This document shows, piece after piece, positions 2,515-64,000 of a DNA stretch of 64,000 bases. Every line of letters starts with the position of its first letter. Within the stretch, counting starts at the first letter, position 1. Under the pieces are notes generated by a model that saw only the letters and a program-made list of their open reading frames with translations, ran no database searches and was not told the origin of the DNA. The position numbers were made by a program, and so were the translations under genes. This stretch comes from Escherichia phage slur07: the sequence record NC_028780.1; one strand, 5' to 3'.

Positions 2515-3755
<1,241 letters not shown>

Positions 3756-5406: not shown

Positions 5407-5732
5407 TGACAGACACACAGCTTTTCGAATATCTTTATTTTTCGCCAAAAACTATTAAAAATAAATTGGTGAATCATTTTGAAATTTTGGCAAATAATAA
5501 CGTCTTGAGCGAATTTTATCCTAAGCAATACAAATTACAAAAAGGCGTATTCAAAGGATGCAGAGTTTTGTGCACTGCTCCTAATGCAAGATTAATGAAT
5601 AAAATTCCATATTTTACCATGGAATTTATTGATGGACCTTTTAAAGGACTAATCACCCAAAGTTTAATGGCATATGATTCTGAGCCATTTTTAATTAAAG
5701 AACAATCTTGGATAAATTTATTTTCTAATTGA
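5403..5732 (+). CDS. hypothetical protein
   Basis: 109-aa ORF, ATGA overlap with upstream gene. Confidence 0.5.
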   Translation: MMTDTQLFEYLYFSPKTIKNKLVNHFEILANNNVLSEFYPKQYKLQKGVFKGCRVLCTAPNARLMNKIPYFTMEFIDGPFKGLITQSLMAYDSEPFLIKEQSWINLFSN

Positions 5733-5738
5733 GGTTAT

Positions 5739-6101
5739 ATGAAAGCATATCAAATTCTTGAAGGCACACATAAAGGTACTATTTATTTTGAAGATGGTAT
5801 TCAAGCACGAATTATTGTTTCTAAAACCTTTAAAGAGGACTCTTTTGTAGACCCAGAAATTTTCTACGGTTTGCATGCCCGTGAAATTGAAATTGAGCCA
5901 CAACCTACAGTTAAAATTGAAGGTGGTCAACACCTGAACGTTAACGTTTTGCGTCGTGAAACTCTGGAAGATGCAGTTAAGCATCCGGAAAAATATCCGC
6001 AGCTGACCATCCGTGTATCCGGTTATGCAGTTCGCTTTAACTCTCTGACTCCGGAACAGCAGCGCGACGTTATCGCTCGTACCTTCACCGAGAGTTTGTA
6101 A
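5739..6101 (+). CDS. autonomous glycyl-radical cofactor (GrcA/YfiD-like; T4 Y06I-type)
   Basis: C-terminal 60 aa [60 protein letters not shown] matches E. coli GrcA as recalled; includes glycyl-radical motif RVSGY. Confidence 0.85.
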
Positions 6102-6322
6102 TGGCAAAGATAATTATTGAAGGTTCTAAAGATGTGCTAAATGCTTTCGCCGAGTGGTTTAGTAATTCAGGCGAACAGCAATTTAATGAAGCGTGGACCA
6201 TGGGTGATATTGATGGAATTTATCCTACGACAGAAATTTCTGTTCAAGGATATGGCATTCATGAACCCATTCGTTTAGTTGAATATGATTTATGTACTGG
6301 TGAGGAAGTCAAATATGATTGA
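6101..6322 (+). CDS. hypothetical small protein
   Basis: 73-aa ORF, TAATG overlap. Confidence 0.5.
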   Translation: MAKIIIEGSKDVLNAFAEWFSNSGEQQFNEAWTMGDIDGIYPTTEISVQGYGIHEPIRLVEYDLCTGEEVKYD

Positions 6323-23530: not shown

Positions 23531-24004
23531 ATGTTATTGACTGGCAAATTATACAAAGAAGAAAAACAGAAATTTTATGATGCACAAAACGGTAAATGCT
23601 TAATTTGCCAACGAGAACTAAATCCTGATGTTCAAGCTAATCATCTTGATCATGACCATGAATTAAATGGACCAAAAGCAGGAAAGGTACGTGGATTGCT
23701 TTGTAATCTCTGCAATGCCGCAGAAGGTCAAATGAAACATAAATTTAATCGCTCTGGTTTAAAGGGACAAGGCGTTGATTATCTTGAATGGTTAGAAAAT
23801 TTACTTACTTATTTAAAATCCGATTACACCCAAAATAATATTCACCCTAACTTTGTTGGAGATAAATCAAAGGAATTTTCTCGTTTAGGAAAAGAGGAAA
23901 TGATGGCCGAGATGCTTCAAAGAGGATTTGAATATAATGAATCTGACACCAAAACACAGTTAATAGCTTCATTTAAGAAGCAGCTTAGAAAGAGTTTAAA
24001 ATGA
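23531..24004 (+). CDS. 49: recombination endonuclease VII (Holliday junction resolvase)
   Basis: 157 aa, zinc-binding CLIC...CNLC, histidine motif DHDHE; matches T4 gp49. Confidence 0.9.
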   Translation: MLLTGKLYKEEKQKFYDAQNGKCLICQRELNPDVQANHLDHDHELNGPKAGKVRGLLCNLCNAAEGQMKHKFNRSGLKGQGVDYLEWLENLLTYLKSDYTQNNIHPNFVGDKSKEFSRLGKEEMMAEMLQRGFEYNESDTKTQLIASFKKQLRKSLK

Positions 24005-25818
24005 CAATTGAAAAAGAAATTGAAGGATTGATTCATAAAACTAATAAAGACCTTTTAAACGAGAATGCTAATAAAGATTCTCGTGTTTTTCCAACTCAAC
24101 GGGACCTTATGGCTGGTATTGTGTCTAAACACATTGCCAAAAATATGGTCCCGTCTTTTATTATGAAAGCGCATGAAAGCGGAATTATCCATTTCCACGA
24201 TATTGATTATTCCCCTGCTCTTCCATTTACTAATTGCTGTTTAGTAGATTTAAAAGGAATGCTTGAAAACGGATTTAAGCTAGGTAATGCACAGATTGAA
24301 ACTCCTAAATCAATTGGCGTTGCTACTGCAATTATGGCACAAATTACTGCACAGGTTGCTTCTCACCAATACGGCGGAACGACTTTTGCGAATGTAGATA
24401 AAGTACTTTCTCCTTATGTTAAACGCACCTATGCAAAACATATTGAGGATGCAGAAAAATGGCAAATCGCCGATGCGTTGAATTATGCTCAATCTAAAAC
24501 AGAAAAAGACGTATACGATGCATTCCAAGCTTATGAATATGAAGTAAATACTCTCTTTAGTTCAAACGGACAGACTCCTTTTGTAACAATTACATTTGGT
24601 ACGGGAACTGACTGGACTGAACGAATGATTCAGAAAGCAATTCTGAAAAATCGTATTAAAGGTCTTGGTCGTGATGGGATAACTCCTATTTTCCCTAAGC
24701 TTGTTATGTTCGTTGAAGAAGGTGTTAATCTTTATAAAGACGATCCGAACTATGATATTAAGCAGCTTGCTCTAGAGTGCGCAAGCAAAAGGATGTATCC
24801 TGATATTATTTCAGCTAAGAACAATAAAGCTATCACTGGTTCATCTGTTCCTGTTTCTCCAATGGGTTGCCGTAGTTTCTTGAGCGTATGGAAAGATTCG
24901 ACTGGTAATGAAATTCTTGATGGACGTAATAATCTTGGTGTTGTAACATTGAATCTTCCTCGCATCGCGTTAGATTCTTATATTGGAACACAGTTCAATG
25001 AACAGAAATTTGTTGAATTGTTCAATGAACGAATGGATTTGTGTTTTGAAGCTTTGATGTGTAGAATTAGTTCCTTAAAAGGAGTTAAAGCGACTGTTGC
25101 TCCTATTCTTTACCAAGAAGGTGCATTCGGGGTTCGTCTTAAACCTGATGACGACATAATTGAGTTATTTAAAAACGGTAGAAGTTCAGTGTCTTTAGGA
25201 TACATTGGTATTCACGAATTGAATATTCTTGTCGGTCGTGATATTGGACGAGAAATTTTAACTAAAATGAATGCTCATCTTAAACAGTGGACTGAAAGAA
25301 CCGGATTTGCTTTTAGTTTATATTCGACTCCTGCTGAAAACCTTTGTTATCGCTTCTGTAAACTCGATACAGAAAAATATGGAAGCGTAAAAGATGTTAC
25401 CGATAAAGGTTGGTACACTAACAGTTTCCATGTTTCAGTAGAAGAAAATATTACTCCGTTTGAAAAGATTTCCCGTGAAGCGCCATATCATTTCATTGCG
25501 ACAGGTGGTCACATTTCTTATGTTGAACTTCCTGATATGAAAAATAACTTAAAAGGTCTTGAGGCCGTGTGGGATTATGCTGCACAACATTTAGATTATT
25601 TTGGTGTTAATATGCCAGTAGATAAATGTTTTACATGCGGAAGTACCCATGAAATGACTCCTACTGAAAACGGATTTGTTTGTTCTATTTGTGGAGAAAC
25701 TGATCCTAAAAAGATGAATACCATAAGAAGAACATGTGGTTATTTGGGAAATCCGAACGAACGCGGATTTAATCTCGGTAAAAATAAAGAAATCATGCAT
25801 AGGGTTAAACACCAATGA
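24001..25818 (+). CDS. nrdD: anaerobic ribonucleoside-triphosphate reductase, uninterrupted
   Basis: 605 aa; C-terminal zinc ribbon CFTCGS...CSICG and glycyl-radical region RTCGYLG. Confidence 0.95.
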   Translation: MTIEKEIEGLIHKTNKDLLNENANKDSRVFPTQRDLMAGIVSKHIAKNMVPSFIMKAHESGIIHFHDIDYSPALPFTNCCLVDLKGMLENGFKLGNAQIETPKSIGVATAIMAQITAQVASHQYGGTTFANVDKVLSPYVKRTYAKHIEDAEKWQIADALNYAQSKTEKDVYDAFQAYEYEVNTLFSSNGQTPFVTITFGTGTDWTERMIQKAILKNRIKGLGRDGITPIFPKLVMFVEEGVNLYKDDPNYDIKQLALECASKRMYPDIISAKNNKAITGSSVPVSPMGCRSFLSVWKDSTGNEILDGRNNLGVVTLNLPRIALDSYIGTQFNEQKFVELFNERMDLCFEALMCRISSLKGVKATVAPILYQEGAFGVRLKPDDDIIELFKNGRSSVSLGYIGIHELNILVGRDIGREILTKMNAHLKQWTERTGFAFSLYSTPAENLCYRFCKLDTEKYGSVKDVTDKGWYTNSFHVSVEENITPFEKISREAPYHFIATGGHISYVELPDMKNNLKGLEAVWDYAAQHLDYFGVNMPVDKCFTCGSTHEMTPTENGFVCSICGETDPKKMNTIRRTCGYLGNPNERGFNLGKNKEIMHRVKHQ

Positions 25819-32985: not shown

Positions 32986-33172
32986 CATTAATGATGAATT
33001 CATAGCAAACATTGATTATACCGAAGAAGATTCTAGATATGTTGGAATAATTTACATTACATCAAAAACAGCACAAGGCGTTGTTTGCATGGCTGAATTT
33101 GACGAATACTTTTTAGATTATGATGATATGATAGAATGGTCTAAAAGATACATTAAAAGGAATCTTTTGTGA
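32966..33172 (+). CDS. hypothetical small protein
   Basis: GTG start after AAGGA. Confidence 0.4.
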   Translation: MKFSTFDINDEFIANIDYTEEDSRYVGIIYITSKTAQGVVCMAEFDEYFLDYDDMIEWSKRYIKRNLL

Positions 33173-34857
33173 AGAATTTTAAACTAAATCGAGTTAGGTA
33201 TCAAAATATAATGTCAGTAGGTGGAAATCCTATTGACATTCAATTAGATAAGGTTCAAAAAACTCTTATTACTGGACGAAATGGCGGTGGTAAGTCTACT
33301 ATGCTAGAAGCCATCACATTTGGGCTTTTTGGCAAGCCATTTCGTGATGTAAAGAAAGGTCAATTAATAAACAGCACAAATAAGAAAGAACTTTTAGTTG
33401 AACTGTGGATGGAATATGATGAGAAAAAGTACTATATCAAAAGAGGACAAAAACCGAACGTTTTCGAAATCACCGTTAACGGTACACGTCTTAATGAATC
33501 TGCCAGCAGTAAAGATTTCCAAGCAGAATTTGAACAGCTTATCGGAATGTCATATGCCAGTTTCAAGCAGATTGTTGTCCTTGGTACAGCAGGGTATACC
33601 CCTTTCATGGGTTTGTCGACCCCTGCACGAAGAAAGCTTGTGGAAGACCTGCTTGAGGTAGGAACATTAGCTGAAATGGATAAGCTTAATAAAGCACTAA
33701 TACGTGAATTAAATTCACAAAACCAAGTGCTTGATGTTAAAAAAGATAGTATTATCCAACAAATTAAAATATATAATGATAACGTTGAACGCCAGAAAAA
33801 ATTAACGGGTGACAACCTTACTCGTCTGCAAAATATGTACGATGATTTGGCAAAAGAAGCTAGAACGCTAAAATCGGAAATAGAAGAAGCTAATGAAAGA
33901 TTAGTTAATATTGTTTTGGATGAAGACCCGACTGATGCATTTAATAAAATCGGTCAAGAAGCAGTTTTAATTAAATCAAAAATTGACTCATATAATAAAG
34001 TCATTAATATGTATCACGAAGGTGGATTATGTCCAACCTGTTTGTCGCAATTAAGTTCCGGTGATAAAGTTGTTTCTAAAATTAAAGATAAAGTTTCTGA
34101 ATGCACGCATTCGTTTGAACAGCTTTCAACACATCGTGATAATTTAAAAGTTCTTGTTGATGAATACCGAGATAATATTAAAACCCAACAGTCGTTGGCA
34201 AATGATATTCGCAATAAAAAGCAATCTCTAATCACGACGGTAGATAAAGCTAAAAAAGTTAAAGCGGCTATAGAAAAAGCATCTTCTGAGTTTATTGACC
34301 ATGCTGATGAAATAGCACTGCTTCAAGAAGAACTTGATAAAATTGTTAAGACAAAAACTAATTTAGTAATGGAAAAATACCACCGAGGAATTTTGACTGA
34401 TATGCTCAAAGATTCTGGTATTAAAGGTGCTATTATTAAAAAGTACATTCCATTATTTAATAAGCAGATTAACCATTATCTTAAAATAATGGAAGCGGAT
34501 TATGTGTTTACATTAGATGAAGAATTTAATGAGACAATTAAATCCCGTGGTCGTGAAGATTTTAGTTATGCTTCATTCAGTCAAGGTGAAAAAGCACGAA
34601 TTGATATTGCTCTTTTATTTACTTGGCGTGATATTGCTGAAAAAGTTTCAGGTGTTAAAATAAGTTGTTTATTTCTTGATGAAGTGTATGACGGTGCATT
34701 TGATGCTGAAGGTATTAAAAATGTAGCTAAAATTTTAGATGGTTTGAAGGATACCAACTTCTTCATAATTTCGCATAAAGACCATGACCCACAAGAATAT
34801 GGTCAGCATATTCAGATGGAAAAAGTTGGTAGATTTAGTTTAGCTAAGATTAGCTAA
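33169..34857 (+). CDS. 46: recombination ATPase subunit (Rad50/SbcC-like)
   Basis: 562 aa, GTG start; Walker A GRNGGGKST, central coiled coil with CPTC zinc hook, signature SQGE, Walker B LFLDE. Confidence 0.92.
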   Translation: MKNFKLNRVRYQNIMSVGGNPIDIQLDKVQKTLITGRNGGGKSTMLEAITFGLFGKPFRDVKKGQLINSTNKKELLVELWMEYDEKKYYIKRGQKPNVFEITVNGTRLNESASSKDFQAEFEQLIGMSYASFKQIVVLGTAGYTPFMGLSTPARRKLVEDLLEVGTLAEMDKLNKALIRELNSQNQVLDVKKDSIIQQIKIYNDNVERQKKLTGDNLTRLQNMYDDLAKEARTLKSEIEEANERLVNIVLDEDPTDAFNKIGQEAVLIKSKIDSYNKVINMYHEGGLCPTCLSQLSSGDKVVSKIKDKVSECTHSFEQLSTHRDNLKVLVDEYRDNIKTQQSLANDIRNKKQSLITTVDKAKKVKAAIEKASSEFIDHADEIALLQEELDKIVKTKTNLVMEKYHRGILTDMLKDSGIKGAIIKKYIPLFNKQINHYLKIMEADYVFTLDEEFNETIKSRGREDFSYASFSQGEKARIDIALLFTWRDIAEKVSGVKISCLFLDEVYDGAFDAEGIKNVAKILDGLKDTNFFIISHKDHDPQEYGQHIQMEKVGRFSLAKIS

Positions 34858-35566
34858 GTTTATATTTACAGTTATCATTATGCCACCTTGATAAATTTCC
34901 GAAAGTGGTAACTTTACCGCAATGGACGCAAGTACCAGTCTTTTCAGTTTTCTTGCGTCCATTTGGATTTTTCTTGCAGAAATTTCTATGCGCTGCGATA
35001 ACGCATTTCTTGCCTATCATTCCGCAGAATTCGCAGGATGTTTCTTCAAGAACGATTGCTTTAAGCCCGTTTGAGATATTATTTCTGTGTTCTTTAGACA
35101 TTGGTGGTCTAACTTTAGGATTGGGGTGATTTGGGCAGTTATCAAAATGCCAACGATTCATATTCCCGCTTAATCCAGACTTACCGCAATGAGGACAAGT
35201 TAGTCTTGCTTTATTAGCTACTGCATCAGACATTTTCTTTCGTGTCTCCTGGGAGAATTCTTTATTCTTTTCTATTTCCCAGAGTTTACGACGAATCCAA
35301 CCGAAAGTTTTATTGTTGCGTTTAGCGTATTTTGTGGAAACTGTCATCATGTTAGCAGCATAGACTAATTTTGGTTCAGAAGGATAAATTTTTACTAAAA
35401 GTTGATGAGCTACATAGTGCTCTTCTGGTGTTAAATCTACTAAGTTTGAGGCATCATCGCTGCCATTTAAACAGCGTGGTATAATGTGATGAGATTCAGT
35501 ATAGCAATCAAGTTTTCGAGATTTAGCATTAGAGATTAACTTTTCATAAATTAGTTTATAATTCAT
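34850..35566 (-). CDS. free-standing HNH homing endonuclease with three C-terminal zinc-finger repeats
   Basis: HNH motif ESHHIIPR...NLVDLTPEEHYVAH; repeats CPHCG..WHFDNC, CEFCG..HRNFC, CVHCG..WHNDNC; AAGGA RBS. Confidence 0.8.
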   Translation of the reverse strand: MNYKLIYEKLISNAKSRKLDCYTESHHIIPRCLNGSDDASNLVDLTPEEHYVAHQLLVKIYPSEPKLVYAANMMTVSTKYAKRNNKTFGWIRRKLWEIEKNKEFSQETRKKMSDAVANKARLTCPHCGKSGLSGNMNRWHFDNCPNHPNPKVRPPMSKEHRNNISNGLKAIVLEETSCEFCGMIGKKCVIAAHRNFCKKNPNGRKKTEKTGTCVHCGKVTTFGNLSRWHNDNCKYKLS

Positions 35567-35599
35567 AACATATCCTTTTGATACAGCGAGTGATAAACA

Positions 35600-35607
35600 T
35601 ATTTATA
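35600..35607 (-). promoter_or_regulatory. late promoter box TATAAATA on minus strand
   Basis: forward TATTTATA is the reverse complement; about 33 nt upstream of minus-strand ATG at 35566. Confidence 0.5.
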
Positions 35608-35617
35608 CGGAGGAACT

Positions 35618-35809
35618 GTGGCAGAATATTCAACTGGACAGCATCTATTAACTATTCCTGAAATAAAACGATATATTCTGAGAAATAATTTTTCTAATGA
35701 AGAGCATATAGTTACTGAATCTATGCTTAGGAATGCATTTAAATCAGAATATACAAAAATAATGTCCAATAGAAATGAAGCTTGGACTGTTACTGATTAT
35801 TATGACTAA
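35618..35809 (+). CDS. hypothetical small protein
   Basis: 63 aa, GTG start after GGAGG. Confidence 0.45.
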   Translation: MAEYSTGQHLLTIPEIKRYILRNNFSNEEHIVTESMLRNAFKSEYTKIMSNRNEAWTVTDYYD

Positions 35810-35818
35810 AGGTGTATT

Positions 35819-36208
35819 ATGACTAAAATTACTGTGAATTATACTGTTGACGTAAAAGATATTCAGCCAAAACACGTGCGTTCTGAATCAAATCCACAAA
35901 ACCAAAATAAAATTCGTCGAGCATGGGTTTTGTCTCTTTCTGATAACGCAATGGAAGTTATTCAGAACAAAATTAAATCTGCACCTGCTCGTCATGCGTA
36001 TTATGAAGCTATCGATCGTGAAGTAAGTAATAAATGGATTGAACTAATGCGCAAACATACTACAGAATCCCTAAACGCCGGTGCTAAATTTATTATGACT
36101 TCATGTGGTGAACGCCTTGAAGATGATTATTGTGGTAATGCAGATGAACGTCTAATTGTTGCTGCTCAAATTGTTGCGGAAACAATTGCGGCTGATTTTA
36201 ATCGTTAA
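35819..36208 (+). CDS. rpbA: RNA polymerase-binding protein RpbA
   Basis: 129 aa; size and position upstream of gene 45 as in T4. Confidence 0.75.
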
Positions 36209-36263
36209 TTGCTTTATTAAATTAGTTATAAAATTAAATCTCATTTGAATTGAAGGAAATTAC

Positions 36264-36950
36264 ATGAAACTGTCTAAAGATACTACTGCTCTGCTTAAAA
36301 ATTTCGCTACTATTAACTCCGGTATTATGCTTAAATCCGGTCAATTTATTATGACTCGCGCAGTTAATGGTACAACTTATGCGGAAGCAAATATTTCTGA
36401 CGTTATTGATTTTGATGTAGCAATTTACGATTTGAACGGTTTTCTCGGTATTCTGTCTCTAGTTAATGATGATGCAGAAATTTCCCAGTCAGAAGATGGA
36501 AATATTAAAATTGCTGATGCTCGTTCAACAATTTTTTGGCCAGCAGCCGATCCGAGTACAGTAGTTGCTCCTAATAAACCAATTCCATTCCCGGTAGCAT
36601 CTGTTGTTACTGAAATTAAAGCTGAAGACCTTCAACAACTGTTGCGTGTATCTCGTGGTCTGCAAATTGATACAATTGCTATCACGGTAAAAGAAGGTAA
36701 AATCGTAATTAACGGTTTTAATAAAGTAGAAGATTCTGCTCTGACCCGTGTTAAATATTCTTTGACTCTTGGTGATTATGATGGTGAAAATACATTTAAT
36801 TTCATTATCAATATGGCAAATATGAAAATGCAACCAGGAAATTATAAACTTCTGCTCTGGGCAAAAGGTAAACAAGGTGCTGCTAAATTTGAAGGTGAAC
36901 ATGCGAATTATGTAGTAGCTCTTGAAGCTGATTCCACCCACGATTTTTAA
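36264..36950 (+). CDS. 45: sliding clamp
   Basis: 228 aa; matches T4 gp45 size and position. Confidence 0.95.
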   Translation: MKLSKDTTALLKNFATINSGIMLKSGQFIMTRAVNGTTYAEANISDVIDFDVAIYDLNGFLGILSLVNDDAEISQSEDGNIKIADARSTIFWPAADPSTVVAPNKPIPFPVASVVTEIKAEDLQQLLRVSRGLQIDTIAITVKEGKIVINGFNKVEDSALTRVKYSLTLGDYDGENTFNFIINMANMKMQPGNYKLLLWAKGKQGAAKFEGEHANYVVALEADSTHDF

Positions 36951-36954
36951 TAGA

Positions 36955-36966
36955 GGGCTTCGGCCC
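36955..36966 (+). terminator. UUCG hairpin GGGC-TTCG-GCCC
   Basis: immediately after gene 45 stop. Confidence 0.45.
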
Positions 36967-37001
36967 TTTATAATTTACACTAAAACTTGAATGAGGAAAT
37001 T

Positions 37002-37961
37002 ATGATTACCGTAAATGAAAAAGAACACATTCTTGAACAGAAATATCGTCCATCTACTATCGATGAATGTATTCTTCCCGCCTTTGATAAAGAAACCTTT
37101 AAATCTATTACAAGTAAAGGTAAGATTCCACATATTATTCTTCATTCTCCTTCTCCAGGAACAGGTAAAACAACTGTAGCAAAAGCATTGTGTCATGATG
37201 TAAATGCTGATATGATGTTTGTGAATGGGTCAGATTGTAAAATTGATTTCGTTCGTGGTCCTTTAACTAATTTTGCCAGCGCCGCTTCATTTGATGGTCG
37301 TCAAAAAGTAATCGTTATTGATGAATTTGACCGCTCAGGTTTAGCAGAATCTCAGCGACATCTTCGTTCCTTTATGGAAGCTTACAGCTCAAACTGTAGT
37401 ATTATTATTACTGCTAACAATATTGATGGTATTATTAAACCGCTTCAGTCACGCTGCCGAGTTATCACATTCGGTCAACCGACCGATGAAGATAAAATTG
37501 AAATGATGAAGCAGATGATTCGTCGGTTGACCGAAATCTGTAAACATGAAGGTATTGCTATAGCTGATATGAAAGTTGTAGCAGCTTTGGTTAAAAAGAA
37601 TTTTCCTGATTTTCGTAAAACTATTGGCGAGCTCGATAGTTATTCATCTAAAGGTGTTTTGGATGCTGGTATTTTATCACTGGTTACTAACGATCGTGGT
37701 GCTATTGATGATGTTCTTGAGTCTCTCAAAAATAAAAATGTTAAACAACTCAGAGCTTTAGCACCAAAATATGCAGCCGATTATTCGTGGTTCGTGGGTA
37801 AACTTGCCGAAGAAATCTATTCACGTGTAACTCCACAAAGTATTATTCGTATGTACGAAATTGTCGGCGAAAATAATCAGTATCATGGTATTGCAGCTAA
37901 TACTGAATTGCATTTAGCTTATCTTTTCATTCAATTAGCATGCGAAATGCAGTGGAAGTGA
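37002..37961 (+). CDS. 44: clamp-loader large subunit (AAA+)
   Basis: 319 aa starting [17 protein letters not shown]; Walker A SPGTGKTT. Confidence 0.95.
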
Positions 37962-37962
37962 T

Positions 37963-38526
37963 ATGAGCTTATTTGAAGATGATATTCAATTAAACGAGCA
38001 TCAAATTGCTTGGTATTCAAAAGATTGGACAGCTGTCCAATCCGCTGCTGATTCTTTTAAAGAAAAAGCTGAAAATGAATTTTTTGAAATAATTGGAGCT
38101 ATCAATAATAAAACTAAATGCTCAATTGCTCAAAAAGATTATTCAAAATTCATGGTCGAAAATGCATTATCACAATTTCCAGAGTGCATGCCAGCTGTAT
38201 ATGCTATGAATTTAATTGGATCAGGCTTAAGTGATGAAGCTCATTTTAATTATCTAATGGCTGCAGTTCCTCGTGGTAAAAGATATGGTAAATGGGCAAA
38301 ACTGGTTGAAGATTCCACCGAAGTATTGATTATTAAGTTACTTGCTAAGCGGTATCAAGTTAATACAAATGATGCAATTAACTATAAATCAATTCTTACT
38401 AAAAATGGAAAACTACCTTTAGTATTAAAAGAACTTAAAGGATTAGTCACGGATGATTTTTTGAAAGAAGTGACTAAGAACGTAAAAGAACAGAAACAAC
38501 TCAAAAAACTAGCATTGGAATGGTAA
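37963..38526 (+). CDS. 62: clamp-loader small subunit
   Basis: 187 aa, position between 44 and regA. Confidence 0.9.
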
Positions 38527-39226: not shown

Positions 39227-41920
39227 AAAGAATTTTATATCTCTATTGAAACAGTCGGAAATAATATTGTTGAACGTTATATTGATGAAAATGGAAAGGA
39301 ACGTACTCGTGAAGTAGAATATCTTCCAACTATGTTTAGGCATTGTAAGGAAGAGTCAAAGTACAAAGACATCTATGGTAAAAACTGCGCTCCTCAAAAA
39401 TTTCCATCAATGAAAGATGCTCGAGATTGGATGAAACGAATGGAAGACATCGGTCTCGAAGCTCTCGGTATGAACGATTTTAAACTCGCTTATATCAGTG
39501 ATACATACGGTTCAGAAATTGTTTATGACCGAAAATTTGTTCGTGTAGCTAACTGTGACATTGAGGTTACTGGTGATAAATTTCCTGACCCAATGAAAGC
39601 TGAATATGAAATTGATGCTATCACTCATTACGATTCAATTGATGATCGTTTTTATGTTTTCGACCTTTTGAATTCAATGTATGGTTCAGTATCAAAATGG
39701 GATGCAAAGTTAGCTGCTAAGCTTGACTGTGAAGGTGGTGATGAAGTTCCTCAAGAAATTCTTGACCGAGTAATTTATATGCCATTCGATAATGAGCGTG
39801 ATATGCTCATGGAATATATCAATCTCTGGGAACAGAAACGACCTGCTATTTTTACTGGTTGGAATATTGAGGGATTTGACGTTCCGTATATCATGAATCG
39901 CGTTAAAATGGTTCTCGGTGAACGTAGTATGAAACGCTTCTCTCCAATCGGTCGAGTAAAATCTAAACTTATCCAAAATATGTACGGTAGCAAAGAAATT
40001 TATTCTATTGATGGCGTATCTATTCTTGATTATTTAGATTTGTATAAGAAATTCGCATTTACTAATTTGCCGTCATTCTCTTTGGAATCAGTTGCTCAGC
40101 ATGAAACCAAAAAAGGTAAATTACCATACGACGGTCCTATTAATAAACTTCGTGAGACTAATCATCAACGATACATTAGTTATAACATCATTGACGTAGA
40201 ATCAGTTCAAGCAATTGATAAAATTCGCGGGTTTATCGATCTAGTTTTAAGTATGTCTTATTACGCTAAAATGCCTTTTTCCGGTGTAATGAGTCCTATT
40301 AAAACTTGGGATGCTATTATTTTTAACTCATTGAAAGGTGAACATAAGGTTATTCCTCAACAAGGTTCGCACGTTAAACAAAGTTTTCCGGGTGCATTTG
40401 TATTTGAACCTAAACCAATTGCTCGTCGATATATTATGAGTTTTGACTTGACGTCTCTGTATCCGAGCATTATTCGTCAGGTTAACATTAGTCCTGAGAC
40501 TATTCGCGGACAGTTTAAAGTTCATCCAATTCATGAATATATCGCAGGAACAGCTCCTAAACCGAGCGATGAATATTCTTGTTCTCCGAATGGATGGATG
40601 TATGATAAGCATCAAGAAGGTATCATTCCAAAGGAAATCGCTAAAGTATTTTTCCAGCGTAAAGATTGGAAAAAGAAAATGTTCGCTGAAGAAATGAATG
40701 CCGAAGCTATTAAAAAGATTATTATGAAAGGCGCAGGGTCCTGTTCAACTAAACCAGAAGTTGAACGATATGTTAAGTTCAGTGATGATTTCTTAAATGA
40801 ACTATCGAATTATACTGAATCTGTTCTCAATAGTTTGATTGAGGAATGTGAAAAAGCAGCTACACTTGCTAATACAAATCAGCTGAACCGTAAAATTCTT
40901 ATTAACAGTCTTTATGGTGCTCTTGGTAATATTCATTTCCGTTACTATGATTTGCGAAATGCTACTGCTATCACAATTTTCGGCCAAGTTGGTATTCAGT
41001 GGATTGCTCGTAAAATTAATGAATATCTGAATAAAGTATGCGGAACTAATGGTGAAGATTTCATTGCAGCAGGTGATACTGATTCGGTATATGTTTGTGT
41101 AGATAAAGTTATTGAAAAAGTTGGTCTTGACCGATTCAAAGAGCAGAACGATTTGGTTGAATTCATGAATCAGTTCGGTAAGAAAAAGATGGAACCTATG
41201 ATTGATGTTGCATATCGTGAGTTATGTGATTATATGAATAACCGCGAGCATCTGATGCATATGGACCGTGAAGCTATTTCTTGCCCTCCACTTGGTTCAA
41301 AGGGCATTGGCGGATTTTGGAAAGCGAAAAAGCGTTATGCTCTGAACGTTTATGATATGGAAGATAAGCGATTTGCTGAACCACATCTAAAAATCATGGG
41401 TATGGAAACTCAGCAGAGTTCAACACCAAAGGCAGTGCAAGAAGCTCTCGAAGAAAGTATTCGTCGTATTCTTCAGGAAGGTGAAGAGTCTGTCCAAGAA
41501 TATTACAAAAACTTCGAGAAAGAATATCGTCAACTTGACTATAAAGTTATTGCTGAAGTAAAAACTGCGAACGATATAGCGAAATATGATGATAAAGGTT
41601 GGCCAGGATTTAAATGTCCGTTCCATATTCGTGGTGTGCTAACTTATCGTCGAGCTGTTAGTGGTCTGGGTGTAGCTCCAATTTTGGATGGAAATAAAGT
41701 AATGGTTCTTCCATTGCGTGAAGGAAATCCATTTGGTGACAAGTGCATTGCTTGGCCGTCGGGCACAGAACTTCCAAAAGAAATTCGTTCTGATGTACTA
41801 TCTTGGATTGACTACTCAACTTTGTTCCAAAAATCGTTTGTTAAACCGCTTGCGGGTATGTGTGAATCGGCAGGTATGGACTATGAGGAAAAAGCTTCGT
41901 TAGACTTCCTGTTTGGCTGA
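39224..41920 (+). CDS. 43: DNA polymerase (family B)
   Basis: 898 aa; exonuclease and polymerase motifs (SLYPS, YGALG, DTDS); matches T4 gp43. Confidence 0.97.
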   Translation: MKEFYISIETVGNNIVERYIDENGKERTREVEYLPTMFRHCKEESKYKDIYGKNCAPQKFPSMKDARDWMKRMEDIGLEALGMNDFKLAYISDTYGSEIVYDRKFVRVANCDIEVTGDKFPDPMKAEYEIDAITHYDSIDDRFYVFDLLNSMYGSVSKWDAKLAAKLDCEGGDEVPQEILDRVIYMPFDNERDMLMEYINLWEQKRPAIFTGWNIEGFDVPYIMNRVKMVLGERSMKRFSPIGRVKSKLIQNMYGSKEIYSIDGVSILDYLDLYKKFAFTNLPSFSLESVAQHETKKGKLPYDGPINKLRETNHQRYISYNIIDVESVQAIDKIRGFIDLVLSMSYYAKMPFSGVMSPIKTWDAIIFNSLKGEHKVIPQQGSHVKQSFPGAFVFEPKPIARRYIMSFDLTSLYPSIIRQVNISPETIRGQFKVHPIHEYIAGTAPKPSDEYSCSPNGWMYDKHQEGIIPKEIAKVFFQRKDWKKKMFAEEMNAEAIKKIIMKGAGSCSTKPEVERYVKFSDDFLNELSNYTESVLNSLIEECEKAATLANTNQLNRKILINSLYGALGNIHFRYYDLRNATAITIFGQVGIQWIARKINEYLNKVCGTNGEDFIAAGDTDSVYVCVDKVIEKVGLDRFKEQNDLVEFMNQFGKKKMEPMIDVAYRELCDYMNNREHLMHMDREAISCPPLGSKGIGGFWKAKKRYALNVYDMEDKRFAEPHLKIMGMETQQSSTPKAVQEALEESIRRILQEGEESVQEYYKNFEKEYRQLDYKVIAEVKTANDIAKYDDKGWPGFKCPFHIRGVLTYRRAVSGLGVAPILDGNKVMVLPLREGNPFGDKCIAWPSGTELPKEIRSDVLSWIDYSTLFQKSFVKPLAGMCESAGMDYEEKASLDFLFG

Positions 41921-61727: not shown

Positions 61728-62099
61728 ATGTTTAAAATCGGTAAGAAGTATCGCATTCGTGAAGGTGAAGAACAGAAATATCTATTTTCTGCTAGTAATA
61801 GGAATAGTTCTATTAATGCTGTAATATTGACTAGTGAATTTATCGTTGAAGATATGAAAGGTCATAATGTTACAATGATTAGTACAGCATCTGGAAATGA
61901 TGGAAAAATTCTTCATAGTTGTCAGAGTAATGTTCTAATTTATGATGAAGAATTTGACTTCTTCAAAGAAGTTTCCGAAGATTTTGATTTTGAATGTACT
62001 ATTACTATGAAATCTGGTGACCCTCTTTCTTTTACAGTTAAAGATGAAAGAAGTCGCTTGAGAATTATTAGTCTTCTTCAAGCCATTAAATTTGAGTGA
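61728..62099 (+). CDS. hypothetical protein
   Basis: 123-aa ORF. Confidence 0.5.
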   Translation: MFKIGKKYRIREGEEQKYLFSASNRNSSINAVILTSEFIVEDMKGHNVTMISTASGNDGKILHSCQSNVLIYDEEFDFFKEVSEDFDFECTITMKSGDPLSFTVKDERSRLRIISLLQAIKFE

Positions 62100-62365
62100 A
62101 AATTATGAAATATATTAATCGTTCTATCGCTGCATTAGTATTAGCAGTGTCTTTAGCAGGATGTACTGATGCTGATAATGCAACCAAAGTTTTATCTTCA
62201 AGTGGTTTTACTAATATTGAAATCACTGGATATAATTGGTTTGGTTGTTCTGAAAATGATTTCCAACATACTGGATTTCGTGCTATTGGACCTACTGGGC
62301 AGAAAGTAGAAGGAACAGTATGTTCTGGTCTATTCTTCAAAGATTCGACTATCCGTTTTAAATAA
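62096..62365 (+). CDS. lipoprotein
   Basis: signal peptide with lipobox LAGC. Confidence 0.5.
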   Translation: MKIMKYINRSIAALVLAVSLAGCTDADNATKVLSSSGFTNIEITGYNWFGCSENDFQHTGFRAIGPTGQKVEGTVCSGLFFKDSTIRFK

Positions 62366-62407
62366 AAGGCCTTCGGGCCTTTAGCTTTATGATTACCGGA
62401 GTATAAT
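62365..62407 (+). promoter_or_regulatory. UUCG hairpin plus MotA-box-like middle promoter
   Basis: GGCC-TTCG-GGCC 62368-62379; AGCTTTA 62383-62389; 12-nt spacer; TATAAT 62402-62407. Confidence 0.45.
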
Positions 62408-62434
62408 ATTCCCGAAACCAAACGAGGATAAGTG

Positions 62435-64000
62435 ATGATTAAGAATGAAATTAAAATTCTGAGCGATATTGAACACATCAAAAAGCGTAGTGGCATGTAC
62501 ATTGGTTCTTCAGCTAATGAAATGCATGAGCGCTTTCTGTTTGGTAAATGGGAAAGTGTTCAGTATGTACCTGGTCTTGTTAAGCTTATTGATGAAATTA
62601 TCGATAACTCAGTAGATGAAGGTATTCGTACTAAGTTTAAATTCGCAAATAAAATTAATGTTACTATTAAAAATAATCAGGTAACAGTTGAAGATAACGG
62701 TCGTGGTATTCCACAGGCTATGGTTAAAACACCTACTGGTGAAGAAATTCCTGGTCCTGTTGCTGCATGGACTATTCCAAAAGCAGGTGGTAACTTTGGT
62801 GATGATAAAGAACGCGTCACTGGCGGTATGAATGGTGTTGGTTCTAGTTTGACAAACATTTTTTCTGTGATGTTTGTCGGTGAAACTGGTGATGGTCAAA
62901 ATAATATTGTAGTTCGTTGTTCAAACGGCATGGAAAATAAATCATGGGAAGATATTCCTGGAAAATGGAAAGGAACTCGTGTTACTTTCATTCCTGATTT
63001 TATGTCATTTGAAACTAATGAGCTGTCCCAAGTTTATCTTGACATTACACTAGATCGTCTCCAGACACTTGCAGTAGTTTATCCTGATATTCAATTTACC
63101 TTTAATGGTAAAAAGGTTCAGGGCAATTTTAAGAAATATGCACGACAGTATGATGAACATGCTATTGTTCAAGAACAAGAAAATTGTTCTATTGCGGTTG
63201 GTCGTTCACCGGATGGTTTTCGTCAATTAACATACGTCAATAACATTCATACTAAGAATGGTGGCCATCACATTGACTGTGTTATGGATGATATTTGTGA
63301 AGACCTTATTCCACAAATCAAACGTAAGTTCAAAATTGATGTAACTAAAGCACGCGTTAAAGAATGTTTGACTATCGTTATGTTTGTTCGTGATATGAAA
63401 AACATGCGATTTGATTCTCAAACTAAAGAGCGTTTGACTTCTCCATTTGGTGAAATCCGTAGTCATATTCAGCTTGATGCTAAAAAGATTTCACGTGCTA
63501 TTCTAAATAATGAAGCAATTCTAATGCCGATTATTGAAGCTGCCTTGGCTCGTAAATTGGCAGCAGAAAAAGCAGCTGAAACTAAAGCAGCTAAAAAGGC
63601 CTCTAAGGCAAAGGTTCATAAACATATTAAAGCGAATCTTTGCGGTAAAGATGCTGACACTACTCTTTTCTTGACTGAGGGTGATTCTGCTATCGGATAT
63701 CTTATTGATGTTCGTGATAAAGAACTTCACGGTGGTTATCCATTGCGTGGTAAAGTTCTTAATAGCTGGGGTATGTCATATGCCGATATGCTTAAAAACA
63801 AAGAACTATTTGATATTTGCGCAATCACTGGTCTAGTTCTTGGTGAAAAAGCTGAAAACTTGAATTATCATAATATTGCTATTATGACTGATGCTGACCA
63901 TGATGGTCTAGGAAGCATTTATCCTTCTCTGCTCGGGTTTTTTAGTAATTGGCCAGAATTGTTTGAGCAAGGAAGAATTCGCTTTGTCAAAACTCCTGTA
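62435..64000 (+). CDS. 39: DNA topoisomerase II large (ATPase/toprim) subunit, 3'-truncated by window end
   Basis: GHKL ATPase motifs (DNGRGIP, GGMNGVGSS), toprim EGDSA and DADHDG; open to position 64000. Confidence 0.9.
   Translation, partial: MIKNEIKILSDIEHIKKRSGMYIGSSANEMHERFLFGKWESVQYVPGLVKLIDEIIDNSVDEGIRTKFKFANKINVTIKNNQVTVEDNGRGIPQAMVKTPTGEEIPGPVAAWTIPKAGGNFGDDKERVTGGMNGVGSSLTNIFSVMFVGETGDGQNNIVVRCSNGMENKSWEDIPGKWKGTRVTFIPDFMSFETNELSQVYLDITLDRLQTLAVVYPDIQFTFNGKKVQGNFKKYARQYDEHAIVQEQENCSIAVGRSPDGFRQLTYVNNIHTKNGGHHIDCVMDDICEDLIPQIKRKFKIDVTKARVKECLTIVMFVRDMKNMRFDSQTKERLTSPFGEIRSHIQLDAKKISRAILNNEAILMPIIEAALARKLAAEKAAETKAAKKASKAKVHKHIKANLCGKDADTTLFLTEGDSAIGYLIDVRDKELHGGYPLRGKVLNSWGMSYADMLKNKELFDICAITGLVLGEKAENLNYHNIAIMTDADHDGLGSIYPSLLGFFSNWPELFEQGRIRFVKTPV

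Follow-up and report, generated by a model that had tools for sequence, protein, structure and literature searches.

The 238-aa reading frame that lies antisense between genes 46 and 45.2, in the 64-kb stretch analysed here (the window), is very probably a free-standing homing endonuclease gene of the Mob HNH family, borne on a cassette and the same gene as RB32ORF054w. An earlier note had proposed, from the DNA letters, an antisense free-standing HNH homing endonuclease with its own late promoter, and this is supported computationally: none of the traits by which such a gene can be recognised in sequence data is missing, namely a Mob-type HNH domain with zinc fingers, an empty site, a linked gene 46 flank, a patchy distribution, purifying selection and a conserved promoter box. 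The gene is already known, being annotated in RB32, RB33, RB51 and dozens more genomes. The GenBank entry for RB32 describes RB32ORF054w as 'similar to mobB, putative site-specific intron-like DNA endonuclease'; it and its RB51 counterpart, RB51ORF057, occupy the same site and encode proteins 99.2% (RB32) and 98.7% (RB51) identical to that of the window. The protein also matches PHROG 655 'homing endonuclease' (E = 7.5e-69), and in 58 phage records proteins 99–100% identical to it are labelled homing endonuclease. RB32 and RB51 appear in Table 5 of a 2010 review among carriers of mob-like HNH genes (PMC2993671). Neither the locus tags nor a characterised 46/45.2 endonuclease turned up in literature searches, and the papers that could be searched contained no experimental account of cleavage, of late transcription or of super-Mendelian inheritance for this gene. 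The gene carries little weight for a genome scan, being an ordinary and correctly recognised selfish element of the class that has been studied most in phages; added here are an exact map of the cassette and its junctions, and the cross-genus conservation of its late promoter and 5' UTR.

The coding sequence is the only long minus-strand ORF in the window (Table 1). Gene 46 (33169..34857, plus strand) converges on it, the two sharing the 8 nt at 34850–34857; in RB51-type copies the C-terminus ends a little differently (…CKHKH) and the overlap with gene 46 is 4 nt. At the same place T4 has no gene, only a 55-bp 46/45.2 spacer. The earlier note is confirmed in its description of a minus-strand ORF with a good ribosome-binding site, a perfect late-promoter box upstream and an overlap with gene 46, as in its remark that T4 is not known to have a mob or seg gene there. 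Its placement of the gene between gene 46 and the rpbA/45 cluster stands on the gene 46 side, but the immediate right neighbour is 45.2 (35618..35809), not rpbA.

Table 1. Features of the endonuclease cassette and its surroundings, in window coordinates.
Feature	Position	Strand	Basis or remark
Divergent gene 46 3' end, ~285 bp, travelling with the endonuclease gene	34573..34857	plus	alignment to T4
Endonuclease CDS, 238 aa, ATG start	34850..35566 (stop codon included)	minus	ORF list and sequence
Zinc finger 3, C213 C216 H229 C233	34868..34930	minus	invariant in 72-sequence alignment
Zinc finger 2, variant, C178 C181 H193 C197, CX2CX11HX3C	34976..35035	minus	sequence
Candidate MotA-type middle promoter TGCTTTA-N13-TATTAT	35057..35082	plus	regex scan; within endonuclease CDS, towards 45.2/rpbA
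Zinc finger 1, C124 C127 H140 C144, CX2CX12HX3C	35135..35197	minus	sequence
Linker helix with NUMOD3-like motif EFSQETRKKMSDA, aa 103–115	35222..35260	minus	weak Pfam NUMOD3 match, E 0.13
HNH catalytic core, aa 24–54: E24, H26, H27, N41, H50, H54	35405..35497	minus	predicted beta-beta-alpha
5'-UTR hairpin GUAUC/GAUAU, Shine-Dalgarno in and beside the loop	35570..35584	minus	folding and orthologue comparison
Shine-Dalgarno AAGGA, 6 nt upstream of ATG	35573..35577	minus	read from sequence
T4-type late promoter box TATAAATA	35600..35607	minus	exact match, 33 nt upstream of ATG
Right cassette junction	35618..35623	plus	45.2 begins GTG-GCA (M-A-E-Y...) versus T4 ATG (M-E-Y...)

The N-terminal domain is of the kind found in the T4 Mob proteins. 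Searches with blastp matched MobB (E = 2e-29), MobE (1e-28), MobD (4e-23) and MobC (4e-22), and the first 110 residues are 42–53% identical to those of MobB, MobE and MobD. All six residues listed for the catalytic core are unchanged throughout a 72-sequence family alignment. In the AlphaFold model (overall pLDDT 94.7), the core folds into strands 24–27 and 42–45 and helix 47–60 with pLDDT of about 98, and the HNH core of EcoKMcrA was aligned by the family profile with an E-value of 2.5e-4. Foldseek comparison with BFVD recovered MobB (3e-11), MobC (7e-9) and many annotated HNH homing endonucleases, with E-values down to 4e-15, while whole-chain searches against solved structures gave no specific match. 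Because the Pfam HNH profile (PF01844) scored 16.9 bits, short of its gathering cut-off of 21.4, membership rests on the Mob homology, the invariant His-27, Asn-41 and His-50, and the model; on these the HNH nuclease domain named in the earlier note holds. The Mob-type domain is a divergent HNH without CxxC pairs.

Beyond this domain, the linker forms helix 106–117 in the AlphaFold model, and a precomputed PF07460 domain in most family members supports this region. Three zinc fingers follow with spacings of X12, X11 and X12, in that order, as a tandem module of the I-TevIII type, for which the motif definition CX2CX12-13HX3C was taken from PMC1865063. The zinc-binding residues of finger 1 are invariant in six orthologues, and this finger shares 50% identity with one in the T4 I-TevIII relic; the Cys and His residues of finger 2 are likewise invariant in orthologues. 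The C-terminal fingers, finger 3 included, match the T4 I-TevIII relic (E = 8e-8) and T4 nrdB.1. Three repeats of the form CxxCG...WH.DNC had been claimed beforehand; fingers 1 and 3 do read CxxCG...RWHxDNC, but finger 2 is a variant, CEFCG...AAHRNFC. We class the endonuclease as sharing the I-TevIII module, not as an I-TevIII orthologue, because its gene is free-standing and not intron-encoded.

The late promoter predicted for the gene is supported by comparison across genera. The box TATAAATA is depleted in the 64-kb window (5 observed versus 10.95 expected from shuffles), and the copy at 35607–35600 is the only one on the minus strand, so that its position directly ahead of the single long ORF of that strand is unlikely to be due to chance. 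A perfect box is kept upstream of the orthologues in RB51, Bp7, Roth19, FL31 and UFV01, the box is present in six of six Tevenvirinae representatives, and it is retained even among orthologues only about 60% identical; the Lw1 orthologue has the variant box CCTAAATA. Comparison of the orthologue upstream regions further showed that the 5'-UTR hairpin belongs to a conserved motif, TATCAnTCGCnGTATCA. Its stems vary yet still pair, as UAUCAAAU/AUUUGAUA in Bp7, UAUCAU/AUGAUA in Roth19 and UAUCAA/UUGAUA in UFV01; the folding energies of these hairpins are not significant alone (z of +0.14 to -1.18). Autorepression of the I-TevI kind was considered and rejected: alignment of the promoter and 5' UTR to the T4 empty site gave a best local score of 9, against 8.3 ± 1.3 for shuffles, with 181 of 500 shuffles scoring as well.

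Alignment to T4 gives sharp cassette junctions. On the right, the window returns to T4 sequence from 35624 onward, and in Mosigvirus, FL31 compared with RB69 has the extra Ala codon likewise, at the same junction. On the left, the first 1392 nt of gene 46 are 97.6% identical to T4, with zero mismatches from 34240 to 34560, after which identity drops to about 83%; the divergent tract codes for the ABC signature, Walker B and H-loop region of gp46. The gene 46 product is a Rad50-like nuclease subunit, which processes breaks of the kind that the endonuclease would make. The insertion also appears to have removed a MotA-type middle promoter found ahead of 45.2 where the site is empty: T4, RB69 and VR26 carry TGCTTTA/CGCTTTA-N11-12-TATAAT in the spacer, whereas the window has none there. 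The candidate embedded in the endonuclease CDS, one of the strict MotA-type motifs of the window (7 on the plus strand, 2 on the minus strand), may substitute for it. The embedded motif is not conserved in the orthologues of other genera, and no sigma-70-type promoter was detected on the plus strand between the endonuclease gene and 45.2.

The gene is distributed patchily. It is carried by 57–58 of about 500 Tequatrovirus records, or about one in nine T4-type phages, and T4 and about 89% of close relatives have no gene at the site, an absence that supports the homing endonuclease interpretation; the earlier note had taken presence at this site in all close relatives as the finding that would speak against it. 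Nor does the distribution track flank similarity, the closest relatives by the flank at 36000–38500 mostly lacking the gene. The gene 46 tract allele is bimodal in the database, with 58 records at a level of at least 96.6% and 444 T4-type records at no more than 84.3%. The divergent tract and the altered 45.2 start occur only alongside the endonuclease gene, with the single exception of KMB22, which has no endonuclease gene, a variant tract up to about 34813 and a T4-type junction, and is a recombinant between the two allele types. As a natural gene-less recombinant, KMB22 could separate the tract from the junction as the immunity determinant. Linkage of this kind between tract and gene is a co-conversion signature, the tract being the putative co-converted foreign flank; among the sampled genera, no donor was closer to it than T4 itself (83%).

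Diverged orthologues (44–65% identity) lie at the same site and in antisense orientation in Dhakavirus, Mosigvirus, Karamvirus, Klebsiella phages and Pseudotevenvirus, with catalytic and zinc-binding residues unchanged. Conserved across genera are the one site, the antisense orientation, the late promoter and the 5'-UTR element with its Shine-Dalgarno hairpin. Against the RB51 copy, the gene shows purifying selection (pN/pS 0.04; 12 synonymous versus 2 non-synonymous changes). A scan of IMG/VR returned one true orthologous locus (IME281), the other hits being distant proteins that mostly match in the N-terminal domain alone. A synonymous CGA-to-AGA change in the Arg codon of KVGRF was rejected as a universal immunity mark, as it occurs in Tequatrovirus, Roth19 and UFV01 and is absent from FL31, Bp7 and Lw1 (three of six gene-carrying lineages).

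These comparisons suggest a mechanism in which the cassette would have taken the place of the 55-bp spacer between 46 and 45.2 in a T4-type genome. Such a cassette would comprise, on the left, the last codons of gene 46, or in Tequatrovirus the entire foreign 3' tract of ~285 bp; in the middle, the antisense endonuclease gene, accompanied by a late promoter and 5' UTR of its own; and on the right, a new ribosome-binding site with the first two codons of 45.2. Late in infection, RNA polymerase with gp55, gp33 and gp45 would initiate at the box upstream of the gene, whose antisense orientation would keep it out of early and middle transcripts. The three I-TevIII-like zinc fingers would bind DNA and the N-terminal HNH domain would nick or cut it, the predicted target being the empty 46/45.2 junction in a co-infecting phage without the gene, followed by recombination-dependent repair from the gene-carrying genome, which would transfer a copy of the gene, flanks included, to the genome that was cut. 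The target most likely lies at or beside the spacer that the cassette replaced and the conserved last stretch of gene 46, AAAGTTGGNCGATTTACTGTAATG, which encodes KVGRFTVM. FL31, which carries the gene, and RB69, which lacks it, are near-identical up to both junctions and differ in gene 46 only in the last ~9 nt, which would place the immunity-conferring difference at the junction.

A distal target is possible but doubtful. It would lie ~285 bp upstream, inside the gene 46 ABC signature motif at around 34573–34600, with the whole tract co-converted in each homing event. Divergence from T4 does start abruptly at 34573, exactly at the FS(E/Q)GEK codons, in perfect linkage to the endonuclease gene, and remote cleavage sites are usual for the free-standing endonucleases of T4, such as SegG (gene 32) and MobE (nrdB) (PMC2790892, PMC2988022). 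The near-identity of FL31 and RB69, however, leaves no distal immunity polymorphism in Mosigvirus, and the FSQGEK of the window is the common form in other genera, with or without the gene, T4 being the odd one. Homing into the junction also has to be weighed against a gene that no longer moves, having entered Tequatrovirus once with a foreign gene 46 tract and persisting by linkage and ordinary recombination while it cuts nothing, or while its targets are resistant or occupied. All 57–58 Tequatrovirus copies share one left boundary in gene 46, with no partial or variable-length co-conversion tracts seen, so that the boundary does not tell ongoing homing apart from one ancient introgression followed by ordinary recombination; T4 itself has defunct relatives in the mobA fragment, the I-TevIII relic and mobE split from nrdB.1. 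We nevertheless consider immobility improbable in view of the strong purifying selection, the invariant catalytic and zinc-binding residues, the conserved promoter, a distribution that does not follow flank similarity, and the 444 records with susceptible-looking empty sites.

Benefit to the phage as the main selected function, through exclusion of competitors' markers or a late antisense transcript that shuts off gp46 synthesis, is very unlikely. At least six lineages keep both the antisense convergent layout and the late promoter. The first intrinsic terminator-like site downstream of the gene lies at about 34198–34185 (minus strand), so late transcripts are predicted to continue into gene 46 in antisense for about 650 nt; antisense transcripts are mentioned in a T4 review as something that endonuclease insertion might bring about (PMC2988022). 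Yet the gene is dispensable, given its absence from most close relatives, and marker exclusion would be the same molecular mechanism as homing. We give equally little credence to the proposal that the lineage, which spans at least six Straboviridae genera, has become a lasting, regulated resident that serves a second role, such as late antisense silencing of gene 46 or autoregulation through its UTR.

Among characterised endonucleases, MobE nicks T2 nrdB and drives co-conversion (PMC2790892). Like the window gene, T4 MobE, MobB, MobC and MobD are free-standing, intergenic and sporadic among T-even phages, and their homologous N-terminal HNH domains share with it the signature MNY..IY..LI...HHIIPRC.GGSDD..NLV.LT..EH..AH. 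The C-terminal DNA-binding domains of MobB, MobC and MobD are unlike that of the window protein; T4 nrdB.1 has one finger of the same type, so that MobE and nrdB.1 together look like the architecture of the window protein broken in two. MobE resides at nrdA/nrdB and not at 46/45.2, is co-oriented and co-transcribed with nrdA and has no promoter of its own (PMC2790892), whereas the window gene is antisense with its own predicted late promoter. The nick made by MobE has been mapped. As an uncharacterised Mob-type enzyme with I-TevIII-like fingers, the window protein comes with many natural target and non-target alleles for work on specificity and nickase activity.

I-TevIII, from the nrdB intron of phage RB3, has the same layout as the window protein, with an HNH domain followed by tandem fingers of the defined motif through which it binds DNA (PMC1865063), and the fingers of its T4 relic are 36–50% identical to those of the window protein. 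I-TevIII is expressed from a late promoter, as is predicted for the window gene. It is, however, intron-encoded, with two fingers in 269 aa, while the window gene is free-standing and encodes three fingers in 238 aa. I-TevIII dimerises to make a double-strand break with 2-nt 3' overhangs. T4 segD offers a parallel for the orientation, being a free-standing endonuclease gene antisense to both of its neighbours (genes 23 and 24), but it encodes a member of the GIY-YIG family and lacks a promoter that can be recognised as its own (PMC2988022), in contrast to the conserved late box of the window gene.

All sequence-level tests available supported reading the gene as an antisense, free-standing homing endonuclease of the HNH type that has a late promoter of its own and is missing from T4. 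Its ORF is by far the longest on the minus strand of the window, and the antisense layout, ribosome-binding site, perfect TATAAATA late promoter box and 8-nt overlap with gene 46 proposed in the earlier note were all recovered. The gene adjoins gene 46 as had been stated, but its immediate right-hand neighbour is 45.2 rather than rpbA. The TATAAATA box is depleted in the 64-kb window (5 copies observed, compared with 10.95 +/- 3.1 in shuffles), and its single minus-strand copy is the one 5' of the endonuclease ORF, making a chance occurrence at this position unlikely.

Features of the endonuclease locus (window coordinates unless a phage locus is named)
Feature	Position	Strand	Remarks
Endonuclease ORF	34850..35566	-	238 aa, ATG start
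Shine-Dalgarno AAGGA of endonuclease ORF	6 nt 5' of ATG	-	From sequence
Late promoter box TATAAATA, perfect	35607-35600	-	33 nt 5' of endonuclease ATG
5'-UTR element, TATCAnTCGCnGTATCA + hairpin	35570-35599	-	Orthologue comparison, folding
5'-UTR element, Bp7 (L008) and further orthologue loci	L008 3203-3238; L009 2932-2968; L010 2935-2985; L011 2933-2965; L097 1455-1500		
Gene 46	33169..34857	+	Convergent with endonuclease ORF; final 8 nt common to both
45.2	35618..35809	+	Right-hand neighbour of endonuclease ORF; then rpbA, gene 45
MotA-like motif, TGCTTTA-N13-TATTAT	35057-35082	+	Inside endonuclease coding region, towards 45.2/rpbA

PHROG 655 ('homing endonuclease') covered the protein end to end (E 7.5e-69), with the Pfam HNH match under its cut-off (16.9 vs 21.4 bits). 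The N-terminal ~110 residues aligned with T4 MobB (44%, E 2e-29), MobE (42.5%, 1e-28), MobC (37%) and MobD (53% over 75 aa). Residues 118-238 form three CX2CX11-12HX3C fingers, matching both the small T4 ORF nrdB.1 and, at E 8e-8, what is left of the I-TevIII C-terminus within the T4 nrdB intron; the three repeats claimed are there, with the exact RWHxDNC ending confined to two of them. In the family alignment of 72 sequences, E24, H26, H27, N41, H50, H54 and the Cys/His residues of the third finger are invariant. A confident AlphaFold model built on this alignment (pLDDT 94.7) placed strands 24-27 and 42-45 and helix 47-60 in the HNH beta-beta-alpha arrangement, after which come a helical linker and three fingers, each a small strand-strand-helix unit. 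The family profile aligned with the EcoKMcrA HNH core (E 2.5e-4), Cas8-HNH and a group II intron maturase. Predicted viral structures matching the model included T4 MobB, T4 MobC and numerous proteins with an HNH homing endonuclease annotation; whole-chain searches against solved structures gave nothing informative. The T4 Mob homology, invariant H-N-H residues and beta-beta-alpha model support the suggested HNH nuclease identity.

The protein should act in the manner of T4 MobE, which nicks the recipient genome and so prompts repair accompanied by co-conversion (PMC2790892); it would cut one or both strands, and would bind DNA via a module of the I-TevIII type (PMC1865063). T4 MobE has 141 aa and only the HNH domain, whereas the window protein carries HNH domain and fingers in one chain. 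Since T4 nrdB.1 is a single zinc finger of the finger 3 type (CPHCGK...GNALRWHYDKC), MobE and nrdB.1 (39719-40416 of the T4 locus L004) look from their sequences like a split version of this full-length architecture.

The window phage is a Tequatrovirus, 99.3% identical to vB_EcoM_G2540 from gene 46 to gene 45. In T4 the 46/45.2 interval is no more than a 55-bp spacer, in keeping with the earlier note, which named no mob/seg gene at this position. Proteins at least 95% identical to the endonuclease were counted in 58 phage records, a GenBank entry and its RefSeq duplicate scoring as two; RB32, RB33, RB51 and RB68 are among them. The RB51 copy, with RB51ORF057 as its locus tag, is named RB32ORF054w and described as 'similar to mobB, putative site-specific intron-like DNA endonuclease'. 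Two mob-like HNH genes have been listed for RB32 and one for RB51 (Petrov et al. 2010, Table 5; PMC2993671). The gene is not novel: its GenBank entries go back to RB32, and annotators routinely call it a homing endonuclease; a literature search found no paper characterising it. The 2.5 kb starting 400 bp right of the element was closest to the non-carriers ESh31, FelixPlatter, REP1, AV122, PhiZZ6 and phiD1, with only a few carriers among the top 60 matches, so that presence of the gene does not follow flank relatedness. The earlier note had held that its presence at this site in all close relatives would speak against its reading; this is clearly not the pattern, the nearest flank relatives mostly being without it. 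A tblastn search of the window with the HNH protein gave no second copy; T4 mobB, mobC and mobD thus have no homologues here, in a region where T4 carries all three, the window corresponding roughly to T4 5-68 kb. nrdD (24001-25818, 605 aa) is read without a break as a single ORF, so the I-TevII intron appears to be missing as well.

Comparison of gene 46 with T4 revealed 97.6% identity over the first 1392 nt, with zero mismatches in 34240-34560, then an abrupt fall at 34573, the rest of the gene being about 83% identical through its stop codon. At the right junction, T4 identity resumes exactly at 45.2 codon 2. The 45.2 RBS (GGAGGAA) and GTG-GCA start are both supplied by the cassette, so 45.2 opens M-A-E-Y, not M-E-Y. 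Database records fall strictly into two groups by their gene-46 3' allele (58 records at >=96.6% identity, 444 at <=84.3%), the high-identity group consisting of the endonuclease-gene carriers and one phage, vB-Eco-KMB22. KMB22 (OR539217.1; L006 1501-1840, equivalent to window 34570-34857) has a T4-type 55-bp spacer in place of the endonuclease gene, and its gene 46 follows the variant tract to about window 34813 and is T4-type from there on, the switch falling in a 32-nt block identical between alleles. KMB22 is either a natural recombinant of both allele types or the product of endonuclease gene loss, and would be useful for locating the target. No sampled genus was closer to the divergent tract than T4 itself; the most fitting reading of the long Tequatrovirus tract is a foreign flank brought along with the gene.

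Full-length relatives were found in 99 records at E <= 1e-60. Those of Dhakavirus Bp7, Mosigvirus FL31, Karamvirus UFV01 and Klebsiella phage Roth19 (57-65% identity) all lie directly 3' of gene 46, in convergent orientation, and 5' of 45.2 or rpbA; a 44.5% relative annotated mobE occupies the same place in Pseudotevenvirus Lw1. All orthologues keep the catalytic and zinc-binding residues unchanged. Together with the 12 synonymous and 2 non-synonymous differences from the RB51 gene in 233 codons (pN/pS 0.04), this argues against a decaying relic. In Bp7 (NC_019500.1; L008 803-2486), gene 46 is annotated as two pieces of 412 and 60 aa, its 3' third being readable only with a frame change, which reflects either a sequencing error or a genuine disruption beside the endonuclease gene.

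A perfect TATAAATA precedes the ATG in all six Tevenvirinae representatives, and Lw1 has CCTAAATA in its place. That the box has been retained although the proteins share only ~60% identity is the strongest support at hand for a functional late promoter, in line with the one proposed in the earlier note. The conserved TATCAnTCGCnGTATCA follows 3' of the box, then a short hairpin with the Shine-Dalgarno in or beside its loop. The hairpin stems vary between genera yet stay complementary; their 5'-UTR folding energies are not significant alone. The element may regulate translation or serve as an operator.

Within Mosigvirus, the carrier FL31 and the non-carrier RB69 share 98-99% identity on either side as far as the junctions; the left-hand difference is confined to the final ~9 nt of gene 46, and the right-hand one extends to 45.2 codon 2. 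The minimal cassette therefore extends from the last few gene-46 codons to the second codon of 45.2. Abutting the insertion point is AAAGTTGGNCGATTTACTGTAATG, which encodes KVGRFTVM. Five genera conserve it at their empty sites, and it is a plausible recognition sequence. Less probably, the target is a distal one where the tract begins on the left, on the pattern of SegG or MobE. The synonymous CGA->AGA change at the gene-46 end occurs in only three of six carrier lineages.

Empty-site spacers of T4, RB69 and VR26 contain a MotA-box middle-promoter-like motif, (T/C)GCTTTA-N11-12-TATAAT, which is lacking between the endonuclease gene and 45.2 in the window; the motif 5' of gene 45 is retained (36210). 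Free-standing endonucleases are generally remarked to displace or embed host promoters (PMC2988022). We infer that the lost spacer motif and the one embedded in the coding region agree with this.

The next longest minus-strand ORFs, 62086-62502 (138 aa) and 5718-6107 (129 aa), have no PHROG family and are probably not genes; in the former region relatives annotate the gene 39 start and small genes, 39.1 and 39.2 among them, and the latter overlaps a plus-strand ORF. Two plus-strand TATAAATA boxes 13 nt apart (2955-2962 and 2968-2975) resemble a tandem late promoter just 5' of a 162-aa ORF (2989-3477), which by position should be the lysozyme gene e.
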